Assembly: GCF_024700885.2 (NCBI RefSeq)
Contig: NZ_CP117016.1
From: Escherichia coli
Lineage (GTDB): Bacteria; Pseudomonadota; Gammaproteobacteria; Enterobacterales; Enterobacteriaceae
Direction: 5' to 3' (one strand)
Length of the DNA stretch: 64,000 nucleotides
Shown here: positions 46,352-47,020 of the stretch, one piece after another
How positions within the stretch are numbered: the first letter of the stretch is position 1
Layout of the letters: each line of letters opens with the position of its first letter
Program-made: the position numbers and the translations under genes
Notes under the pieces: generated by a model
What the model was told of the DNA's origin: nothing
What the model saw: the letters and a program-made list of their open reading frames with translations, nothing else
The model's database searches: none

Positions 46352-47020
46352 TTTCAGCAGAAATTATTTCCGCAGGGATAAATAGATCTATTTCCGTCTC
46401 GTTTCTTCTAATCCATTCTTCAGGCATGAATGTATTCGGTCTTCTGGTAATTTCAGAAAACTGGCCGTTTTAGAATGTAAAGTTAATTTCTCAGGAAATT
46501 ATTTCTACCTCTTTTTGCTTAACCAATATGGCTTGAAAAAGACGTAAAGCAGCATGCGTTCTGGATTACTCCGGAACACACTTATTCAAAATGGGCTGCT
46601 AATTTCGCAAGAAATTATTTTTTACTATTACTGTTAACTACTTGATTATAATACCACCTATGAATTTTATGCGTAACAATACCTGCAATCTGTTTCAAAC
46701 CAGAACACACGCGATTGATTACCAATAAATTGTTCACCGAGAAACTATTTCCCTATTTAAAATTCACTCGTGTACTTCTTATTTATATCTACAGCCCCCT
46801 CTTTACAGCCATATTTGTGATTTATATCACATTTAAATGGTGTTATTTAAGTTGCATCAATAATCCCGAAGGTAATTATTTTCGTCGATTAAAATATACA
46901 TCTTGATTATTTTGTGTATTTATTTTAACCAGTGTTACAACCAACACCATCCCTCAGTAGATATACCTGAGCAGACATTTCTTAAAATTGACGAATAGTT
47001 TCCCTGGAAATTATTATGCT
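46352..47020. repeat. six imperfect copies of an about 22-bp motif (AATTTC-N4-5-GAAATTATTTC) at roughly 120-135 bp spacing in the kps region 3 leader
   Basis: Copies near 46352, 46485, 46601, 46731, 46863 and 46999, read directly. Confidence 0.5.

Follow-up and report, generated by a model that had tools for sequence, protein, structure and literature searches.

The kpsM leader

The DNA analysed here is a stretch of 64,000 nucleotides of Escherichia coli (contig NZ_CP117016.1 of assembly GCF_024700885.2), referred to as the window, and the element under study is an array of six short palindromes, U1 to U6, in the long leader upstream of the capsule gene kpsM. The array is hosted by a 1.17-kb non-coding stretch (window 46214 to 47387, 65% A+T) between two genes of the - strand, kpsM and gspM/yghD; an earlier note on the window, prepared from its letters alone, had given this gspM-to-kpsM setting correctly. 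In every matching genome kpsM carries the annotation ABC transporter permease. The array-bearing leader is limited downstream by a JUMPstart element with ops, the loading site of RfaH. Since this JUMPstart/ops match lies upstream of kpsM, the stretch was assigned as the region 3 (PR3) regulatory region of a group 2 capsule (kps) locus. The mechanical kpsM open reading frame (ORF) was 45438-46274, and motif statistics were computed on a 1112-bp intergenic region. Coordinates of the features are collected in Table 1.

Definition and periodicity of the palindrome

Six copies of AATTTC-N4-GAAATTATT(TC) were located on the + strand, all in the same orientation, at 46350, 46485, 46601, 46731 (degenerate), 46862 and 46997, giving core-to-core distances of 135, 116, 130, 131 and 135 bp. 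The GAAATTATTTC-like 11-mers within them start at 46360, 46495, 46611, 46741, 46872 and 47007 and carry 0, 0, 1, 1, 2 and 2 mismatches, respectively. The copies lie where the earlier note had placed them. Its spacing of about 120-135 bp holds as to regularity, with a measured range of 116-135 bp, and its spacer of 4 or 5 nt is narrowed to 4 nt, as a palindrome test with N5 failed and the N4 version passed.

The basic unit, AATTTC-N4-GAAATT, is a 16-bp palindrome followed by ATT(TC); U1-U3 match it perfectly and U6 with one mismatch. Read more widely the element is a 9-4-9 dyad of 22 bp with the consensus AATAATTTC-N4-GAAATTATT on the window + strand, in which the right arm is the more uniform across copies and the left arm is its weaker mirror image. 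Over 47 distinct 22-mer variants 83% of the 9-4-9 pair cells are complementary. The dyad is symmetric, with half-sites about one helical turn apart.

Chance occurrence was assessed with 1000 dinucleotide-preserving shuffles of the 1112-bp intergenic region. The full motif with up to 3 mismatches was observed 7 times (shuffle mean 0.04), GAAATTATTT with up to 1 mismatch 9 times (mean 0.5) and AATTTC-N4-GAAATT with up to 2 mismatches 8 times (mean 0.5), and none of these counts was reached in any of the 1000 shuffles. The five gaps have a coefficient of variation of 0.06, corresponding to P~5e-6 under random placement of six sites. Both results bear out the earlier claim that random AT-rich DNA does not produce such a pattern. 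No further full-motif copies were found elsewhere in the 64-kb window.

Selection on arms and centres

Variation was measured in a sample of 70 leaders (47 haplotypes), comprising 15 alleles from complete genomes and 55 recovered from metagenomes by scanning for an invariant 18-mer. Mean nucleotide diversity (pi) was 0.045 over the 102 positions of the palindrome arms, 0.087 over the 671 positions of the rest of the leader and 0.268 over the 24 positions of the six 4-nt centres. The arms are thus about twice as conserved, and the centres about three times as variable, as the near-neutral leader around them; in a composition-matched permutation the arms were low at P=4.5e-4 and the centres high at P<5e-5. 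As a neutral yardstick the four-fold degenerate sites of kpsM were used in the 12 alleles with a complete kpsM. The invariant fraction was 0.57 at four-fold sites, 0.62 in the leader, 0.79-0.83 in the arms and 0.125 in the centres. The leader as a whole is thus close to neutral in its drift, with constraint on the arms and, in the centres, change that outpaces the four-fold sites.

Counted from the G of GAAATT, conservation spans about -12 to +8 and is roughly symmetric on the palindrome centre. The TCC that completes an 11-13-nt right-hand palindrome has no overall conservation. In the Nord8 allele, which is 76% identical to the window, U1, U3, U4 and U6 have kept their arms and changed their spacers, and the same combination of kept arms and changed spacers is seen in E. 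whittamii and Escherichia sp. E1V33. The centres of U4 (46737-46740), U5 (46868-46871) and U6 (47003-47006) are among the most polymorphic spots of the leader; changes there often hit 2-3 adjacent bases and are not explained by base composition. Taken from sequence comparison, this pattern suggests that the palindrome arms are under purifying selection and that the centre is free, as in the operator of a dimeric protein. The hypervariable centres may arise from hairpin-associated mutagenesis or from adaptive tuning. Two other sources were considered and rejected. Swapping of spacers between copies would make 4-mers recur across copies or as reverse complements, and some do, at about the frequency of chance in a rough coincidence count. 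Deamination at Dcm sites (CCWGG) fits a single U6 change only.

The copies differ in how far they vary. U1 is the best conserved, with an identical 21-mer in 62 of the 70 leaders. U2 has lost its right half in a 116-bp deletion allele (see below), is interrupted in Nord8-type alleles by an insertion of 10 bp, and has its right arm mutated to TTATGCG in the AHB24, E69 and E. whittamii types. In U3 of the Nord8 allele the arms are kept and the spacer is changed from GCAA to GCGG. The right arm of U4, GAAACTATT (46741-46749), is invariant in the 47 haplotypes; the 15 distinct 21-mers found for this copy in 70 sequences differ nearly always between TGTT and GAAAC, and among all 5-nt windows of the intergenic region its centre ranks third in diversity. 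U5 likewise has 15 distinct 21-mers in 70 sequences, and here the centre ranks first; the U5 of the Nord8 allele is nearer the consensus than that of the window. Eleven distinct 21-mers were found for U6. A promoter-like sequence on the + strand, TTGACG-18-TATTAT (46988-47017, 10 of 12 positions), overlaps U6 and points toward yghD, that is away from kpsM and antisense to the leader.

Table 1. Features of the kpsM leader and its surroundings in window coordinates
Feature	Position	Strand	Description
kpsM	45438..46214	-	ABC transporter permease, first gene served by the leader; ORF with translation MARSGFEVQKV..., ATG at 46214
JUMPstart with ops	46243..46281	-	ops is GGCGGTAG, RfaH loading site; Rfam RF01707, 58.5 bits vs gathering 35, E 1.6e-12
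646-bp segment	46312..46957		Contains U1-U5 and a CRP-like site; group 2-specific, missing in strain MS1494
U1	46347..46368	+	AAAAATTTC-AGCA-GAAATTATT; zero mismatches to AATTTC-N4-GAAATTATTTC; nearest ops
U2	46482..46503	+	GTTAATTTC-TCAG-GAAATTATT; zero mismatches in the window; dispensable copy
116-bp unit	46495..46610		Present in 6-copy and absent in 5-copy alleles (allele alignments)
U3	46598..46619	+	GCTAATTTC-GCAA-GAAATTATT; one mismatch to the full motif
U4	46728..46749	+	AATTGTTCA-CCGA-GAAACTATT; left arm degenerate, centre hypervariable
U5	46859..46880	+	AATAAT-CCC-GAAG-GTA-ATTATT; outer hexamers perfect, inner arm bases degenerate
U6	46994..47015	+	AATAGTTTC-CCTG-GAAATTATT; three mismatches to the full motif; nearest the promoter
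PR3 promoter/transcription-start area	47041..47090	-	Published 741 bp maps to ~47071 on the 5-copy K5 allele
gspM/yghD	47387-47923	-	3' end at 47387

Origin and copy number of the array

Tandem Repeats Finder reported no repeat in 46000-47600, because the repeated part is confined to a core of ~21-32 nt. In a MAFFT alignment of the six units conservation was confined to the first ~35 columns. Pairwise semi-global scores of the inter-core segments were not above those of shuffles (summed z=0.7), and after masking of the cores the match fraction at in-register lags was unremarkable (z -0.8 to +0.9). The best two 30-nt self-matches over lags 15-700 fell at the in-register lags 129 and 135. Against shuffled sequence, the yardstick named in the earlier note, the cores stand out and the DNA between them does not. 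Unit length is near-constant and unit polymorphism in register is seen, as expected of a decayed tandem array; similarity over the whole unit, also expected, was not found.

The leader region was present in 1699 of 5426 complete genomes, and most matches consisted of two pieces with exactly 116 bp missing. The deletion fuses the left arm and spacer of U2 to the right arm of U3, so that the hybrid palindrome is intact and the register is kept. Five copies are the commonest state; the unit was covered, giving six copies, in 417 of 1551 genomes (~27%), and was missing from 38 of the 70 sampled leaders. Strains with five copies include NU14 (K1), the CFT073-like clone D i14, BL21, SMS-3-5, 83972 (K5) and Nissle 1917. 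Six copies are found in the window strain, ATCC 25922/Seattle 1946, SE15 and the divergent Nord8 and AHB24 types. The comparison with K1 and K5 leaders suggested in the earlier note thus finds the array in both, with five copies in NU14, 83972 and Nissle 1917. No unit number other than five or six was seen among these alleles. All three other Escherichia lineages that were recovered (Escherichia sp. E1V33, E. whittamii and the divergent E69) carry six, so six copies are probably the ancestral state.

The unit-like spacing, the in-register deletion of a unit and the self-matches at lags 129 and 135 suggest that the array is a decayed head-to-tail duplication of a ~130-bp unit, in which all but the palindrome has fallen to background. 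The earlier note had offered repeated binding sites or a decayed tandem duplication as alternatives; the evidence suggests both together, with the binding of protein being what we infer.

Taxonomic distribution

A KpsM search with one genome per species in Enterobacterales gave 43 loci, four from Escherichia and 39 from other genera. The array was present in the four Escherichia loci only. None of the 39 kpsM loci outside Escherichia contained it, and in most of these ops was located at -32..-48; the genera without the array include Pantoea, Mixta, Rahnella, Kluyvera, Phytobacter, Citrobacter, Yersinia massiliensis and Franconibacter. Upstream intergenic lengths outside Escherichia were 313-880 bp, with Phytobacter as the exception at 1.4-1.7 kb. 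Conservation across kps loci, named in the earlier note as a further check, therefore holds for the group 2 loci of Escherichia and fails for the 39 loci of other genera.

The locus of the group 3 strain MS1494 (L003 2430-2620) contains yghD-proximal PR3-like DNA, one U6-like copy (AGTTTTCGTAGAAATTATTTT at L003 2540), JUMPstart/ops and a 5' remnant of kpsM. At its junction, ...CTGGAT-GAAC-TAGATA..., the equivalent of 46311 is joined via GAAC to the equivalent of 46958, and the 646-bp segment of Table 1 is missing; the megablast match for this strain was limited to query positions 759-1201. From this arrangement the array is a feature of Escherichia group 2 loci, placed between a promoter and an ops that can also work when adjacent.

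The 37-nt core with its flank was found at one place per genome and solely in 1552 kps-positive genomes. A dispersed repeat family of the REP/BIME/ERIC kind was rejected on the basis of this single locus per genome and of the full-motif scan of the window.

Position of the array in the PR3 transcript

Transcription from PR3 is reported to start 741 bp upstream of kpsM, at a promoter with a -10 element and no -35 (PMC8960920). H-NS footprints were mapped at -135..-21 and +141..+219, with SlyA overlapping both. H-NS and SlyA act at PR3, MprA and LrhA affect it via routes not established, and the amount of transcription reaching region 3 is modulated by the long 5' untranslated region (UTR) (PMC8960920). 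The K5 strains 83972 and Nissle have five copies, and in 83972 the position 741 bp above the kpsM ATG corresponds to window 47071. The alternative start is 46955, if the K5 clone of 1997 carried six copies. Only a start at 47071 places the H-NS footprints on the two AT-richest stretches (74-75% A+T vs 65-70%), and for this reason a start at ~47071 is considered more likely, with some reservation as the assignment is made from sequence. A promoter-like TGGAAA-17-GATAAT is located at 47069-47041.

All six copies are then probably transcribed, inside the kpsM 5' leader between the PR3 start and JUMPstart/ops. Under the 47071 start U6 is at +54..+75 and U5 at +189..+209, and U1 lies ~95 bp before ops. 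The 741-bp start applies to one allele type only, the leader being ~741 nt in 5-copy and ~857 nt in 6-copy alleles, a difference of 116 nt. Literature coordinates for PR3 need to be read with the 5- or 6-copy allele in mind.

Candidate binding proteins

The palindrome copies are, by their sequence, candidate sites for a dimeric DNA-binding protein, with the IclR box, the 'SlyA box' of Salmonella, MprA, YbdO/CitR and H-NS as tentative leads to its identity. Consensus sequences of IHF, Lrp, FNR, Fur and LysR-type regulators (T-N11-A) were compared by inspection and rejected, as they misfit the conserved positions. The earlier note had named H-NS, IHF and SlyA; IHF drops out, since no copy resembles its consensus, and the SlyA consensus fares no better. 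The latter is given as TTAGCAAGCTAA / TTA-N6-TAA (PMC5797941). The 12-mer is absent from all copies, and by inspection TTA-N6-TAA occurs in none. A 'SlyA box' of Salmonella is given as AATATT-N10-ATTATT (PMC6469979). Its palindromic form, AATAAT-N10-ATTATT, is matched by U5 with zero mismatches and by U1, U2, U3 and U6 with 1-2 mismatches; U4 fell outside a 2-mismatch scan. The window's other AT-rich parts also yield many such matches (17 hits). The related EmrR/MprA is reported to bind AT-rich DNA without a consensus and to prime the counter-silencing of H-NS (PMC6469979), and SlyA and MprA are both needed for full kps transcription.

YbdO/CitR was reported to bind the 300 bp upstream of kpsM by electrophoretic mobility shift assay and by chromatin immunoprecipitation with quantitative PCR (PMC9141747); the bound 300-bp fragment contains U1 and the U2/3 hybrid. 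In CFT073, kps is coated by H-NS-StpA filaments, and counter-silencing by RfaH is confined to the DNA beyond ops (PMC9765446), so that the pre-ops leader is the stretch in which another mechanism would be needed. No regulator gene was recognised beside kps among the eight ORFs scanned. The island above kpsF (18960-28918) contains an IS66 transposase, a RadC-family protein and IS21 istA/istB, the rest being without assignment.

Proposed role of the array

The account that we prefer, tentatively and on the strength of the sequence comparisons, is that the array is a decayed ~130-bp duplication whose palindromes have been kept by selection as sites for a dimeric protein that sets how much PR3 transcription reaches ops. 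An ancient head-to-tail duplication of a ~130-bp unit would have given rise to the five or six palindromes, the first at about +54 of the PR3 transcript and the last ~95 bp short of ops. The arms would have been retained because a dimeric sequence-specific protein recognises each copy as DNA and does not read its central 4 bp. Together the sites would form a multi-site control platform in the pre-ops leader, acting before RfaH is loaded. The platform would set the PR3 transcription that arrives at ops, where RfaH takes over, and thereby the expression of kpsMT and region 2. The likeliest direction would be counter-silencing of H-NS/StpA by a regulator of the SlyA/MprA type or a similar one; alternatively, the sites may act as a repressive roadblock. 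The sequences show that the copies exist, that they are evenly spaced, that their arms are selectively conserved, that their number varies between strains and that they are restricted to one lineage; we infer the binding of protein, the identity of the binder and the sign of its effect.

Several observations weigh against this account. None of the known consensus sequences that were compared fits the copies cleanly, and direct binding of MprA to PR3 was reported as not detected (PMC8960920). The upstream region of citR/ybdO in K-12 is without a copy, and autoregulation of YbdO/CitR through the same motif is therefore not supported. The spacings of 116-135 bp are not integral helical turns, so cooperative binding on one face of the DNA is not implied. 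U2 has been lost in three independent ways and the group 3 locus works with a single copy, from which it follows that the full array is not essential. A palindrome with a free centre is also expected of an RNA or DNA hairpin. Finally, a simple operator model gives no reason for the centres to evolve faster than neutral proxies.

In a fuller version, which we rate as rather improbable, the array would be a counter-silencing track on which a MarR-type dimer (MprA and/or SlyA) or another regulator keeps open the ~0.7-0.85 kb of H-NS/StpA-prone DNA that RNA polymerase has to cross without RfaH between PR3 and ops. The array would then be the direct kps target of MprA, and copy number and centres would tune capsule output, or else the centres would reflect a mutational process specific to palindromes.

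The strongest competitor, itself unlikely, is that the copies are nucleation sites of H-NS/StpA, seeding a filament or bridge that would silence PR3 transcription at 20°C and moderate it at 37°C. The region has the A+T content for this (65%), every core contains an AATT tract and a TpA step, and U5 lies within the 3' footprint, on which repression at 20°C depends. The spacer with the right arm (TCAGGAAATT, GCAAGAAATT) agrees at 7/10 positions with tCGATAAATT, a motif of H-NS sites. This is the best score of any core; an equal match, TCGATTAAAA at 46885, lies beside U5 rather than within it, and two 8/10 matches are located elsewhere in the leader. The conserved dyad symmetry and the fixed C/G positions are not required by H-NS. 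As for the earlier proposal of H-NS sites, the published footprints under the likelier start cover U5 and leave U6 outside both, with U1-U4 beyond their reported range. In CFT073, H-NS-StpA covers kps, but the H-NS signal stops short of the predicted kps start (PMC9765446).

Somewhat less probable again is a functionless relic of a ~130-bp duplication, in which the palindromes have been kept alike not by selection but by mutational processes such as intrastrand templated repair or conversion between copies. Spacing without helical phasing, the dispensable U2 and the single copy of the group 3 locus would all be accommodated, as would the hypervariable centres, which fit hairpin loops prone to template switching; recombination between cores is demonstrated by the 116-bp deletion. 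Decay has taken the flanks to randomness, however, and six cores have kept their arms, which implies long-term constraint, and the arms are conserved in every lineage, separate Escherichia species included. Conversion would homogenise the spacers, and these differ between copies. The stems, at 6-9 AT-rich pairs, are weak for hairpin-driven processes. Self-templating does not account for the fact that GAAATTATT, the more conserved arm, is also more alike across copies than its mirror arm.

A role in RNA, with AU-rich leader hairpins and free tetraloops serving as a thermosensor, as pause or termination signals or as modules bound by an RNA chaperone such as Hfq, and so controlling readthrough to ops, is given a low probability. 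The probable transcription of all copies and the classic stem-loop pattern of conserved arms and a variable 4-nt centre favour it, and kps expression is temperature dependent with the UTR implicated. The sense RNA of U1 (-10.6 kcal/mol, z -2.6) and U2 (-7.1 kcal/mol, z -2.3) folds better than shuffles. The U1 hairpin (46347-46373, - strand) was flagged as terminator-like, with GCGGAAATAATTTCTGC followed by TGAAATTTTT, and lies ~90 nt before ops; its outer pairs are not kept in the Nord8 allele. The sense RNA of U3-U6 folds no better than shuffles (z -0.8 to +0.5). Pairing has no strand preference, with 83% of cells on each strand, and differences of the wobble type cut both ways, favouring the sense strand in U5 and the antisense strand in U6. 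No compensatory changes were seen, GGA or ARN motifs are present inconsistently, and JUMPstart was the single family matched in the Rfam search. Thus neither a stable conserved fold nor a known family, as expected of a structured cis-regulatory RNA, was found for the copies. Because few of them fold well and pairing has no sense-strand preference, a role at the DNA level is favoured.

It is very doubtful that the right-hand part of each copy, rGAAATTATTTCy, is an operator of the IclR family which would tie capsule output to central carbon metabolism, a reading suggested by sequence resemblance. The E. coli IclR consensus is the 7-1-7 palindrome TGGAAATNATTTCCA (PMC8222616 Table 1). By inspection the copies match it at 9-12 of the 14 specified positions; in U1 and U2 the central 11 positions are perfect, and their right-hand 11-13 nt are the exact centre of the consensus. 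Conservation is centred on the 16/22-bp palindrome instead and reaches 10 nt to the left of the box, and the TCC of the box is not conserved overall, positions +9 to +11 having a mean pi of 0.08-0.16 vs 0.087 in the leader. To our knowledge no link between IclR and the capsule has been made. The usual tandem sites ~20 bp apart (PMC8222616) are not seen here.

Least probable is that the copies act as -10-like elements in sigma70-dependent pausing of elongating polymerase or as cryptic tandem promoters of acquired AT-rich DNA: each sense strand has AATAAT or a near variant (5/6 to TATAAT), the promoter-like site on the + strand overlaps U6, and PR1 holds three tandem promoters (PMC8960920), but there are no -35 partners, a promoter scan gave 2 sites in the region vs 4.8 in shuffles, and the conserved TTTC/GAAA and the dyad symmetry would be left without explanation.

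Relation to known systems

The nearest described system is the control of kps PR1/PR3 by H-NS and SlyA with RfaH/ops (Roberts laboratory, PMC8960920), which concerns the same locus and shares binding at multiple places round the start, a long UTR and ops at the end of the leader. It differs in its broad, promoter-near footprints, and no repeated element, periodicity or copy-number variation has been described for it; five of the six copies lie outside the reported kps H-NS footprints. The sopC site of the F plasmid consists of twelve 43-bp tandem repeats, each with a short inverted repeat that is bound by SopB. The leader array likewise has head-to-tail units with a short inverted repeat, here a putative protein site, and a unit number that varies by recombination. 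In sopC, a partition locus, the units are alike over their whole length, whereas here a ~22-bp palindrome alone survives of each ~130-bp unit, in a chromosomal transcribed leader. As in the counter-silencer sites that the MarR family uses in AT-rich promoters gained by horizontal transfer (SlyA/RovA/EmrR-MprA; PMC6469979, PMC5797941), the copies are AT-rich dyads of ~22 bp with outer hexamers resembling the SlyA box, and they are unlike the SlyA sites of that family in lacking its consensus words. IclR operators differ in the centre of conservation and in their tandem site pairs.

REP/BIME, ERIC/IRU and box C are dispersed intergenic repeats of E. coli, and the ERIC unit is ~127 bp long. They resemble the array as short imperfect palindromes in transcribed non-coding DNA; the array is unlike REP/BIME/ERIC in being limited to one locus and to kps-positive genomes, in being AT-rich rather than GC-rich and in having all copies in direct orientation.

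No description of the array was found in the accessible kps literature, which does not cover the primary PR3 papers (Stevens 1997, Xue 2009), and the word 'repeat' is absent from the 2022 kps review (PMC8960920). The earlier statement that the periodicity is undescribed agrees with this literature, a prior description in the primary papers being possible. A literal search for motifs of the TTTC-N4-GAAA type returned eukaryotic STAT6 papers only. From its sequence, the array looks like an apparently undescribed array of operator-like repeats, in decayed tandem form, in a transcribed leader before ops.

Group 2 capsules (K1, K2, K5 and K100 among them) contribute in a major way to the virulence of extraintestinal E. 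coli, and MprA is a drug target for capsule inhibition. The array turns a vague effect of a large 5' UTR into defined 22-bp elements that can be counted and are naturally polymorphic. The role of the long leader and the direct targets of the regulators thereby become directly testable, as strains with 5 and 6 copies can be compared. The combination of conserved arms with centres that change faster than neutral is an unusual population-genetic signal in its own right.

Other sites in the kps regulatory regions

In the PR1 region above kpsF no full motif was found, the hit at 32686 being the start codon region of kpsD. At 30127-30148 this region contains AATAATCAATTGATAAATTGTT, which has one mismatch to AATAAT-N10-ATTATT and includes the perfect palindrome ATCAATTGAT. 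The element lies at about -79..-58 from the reported PR1-1 start and does not contain the leader motif's TTTC/GAAA.

A perfect CRP-type palindrome (TGTGA-N6-TCACA), TGTGATTTATATCACA, is located at 46816-46831 inside the kpsM leader, between U4 and U5 and at ~+240 from 47071, and is the sole one in the 64-kb window. Its arms are invariant in 70/70 leaders and its N6 shows 8 variants. The 2022 review (PMC8960920) does not list CRP as a regulator of kps. The sequence TTAAGTTGCATCAA at 46847-46860 adjoins U5 at its left hexamer. It contains a perfect FNR half-site, ATCAA, with a weaker half to the left, and is poorly conserved between alleles. It may be the FNR/Fur site reported for PR3.

Insertions and deletions were also observed above the start. 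A 17-bp deletion at 47197 (47197-47213) is present in 13/70 leaders, and in Nord8-type alleles 15 bp are inserted near 47374. Diversity is higher upstream of the start than in the leader, with invariant fractions of 0.43 and 0.62, respectively.

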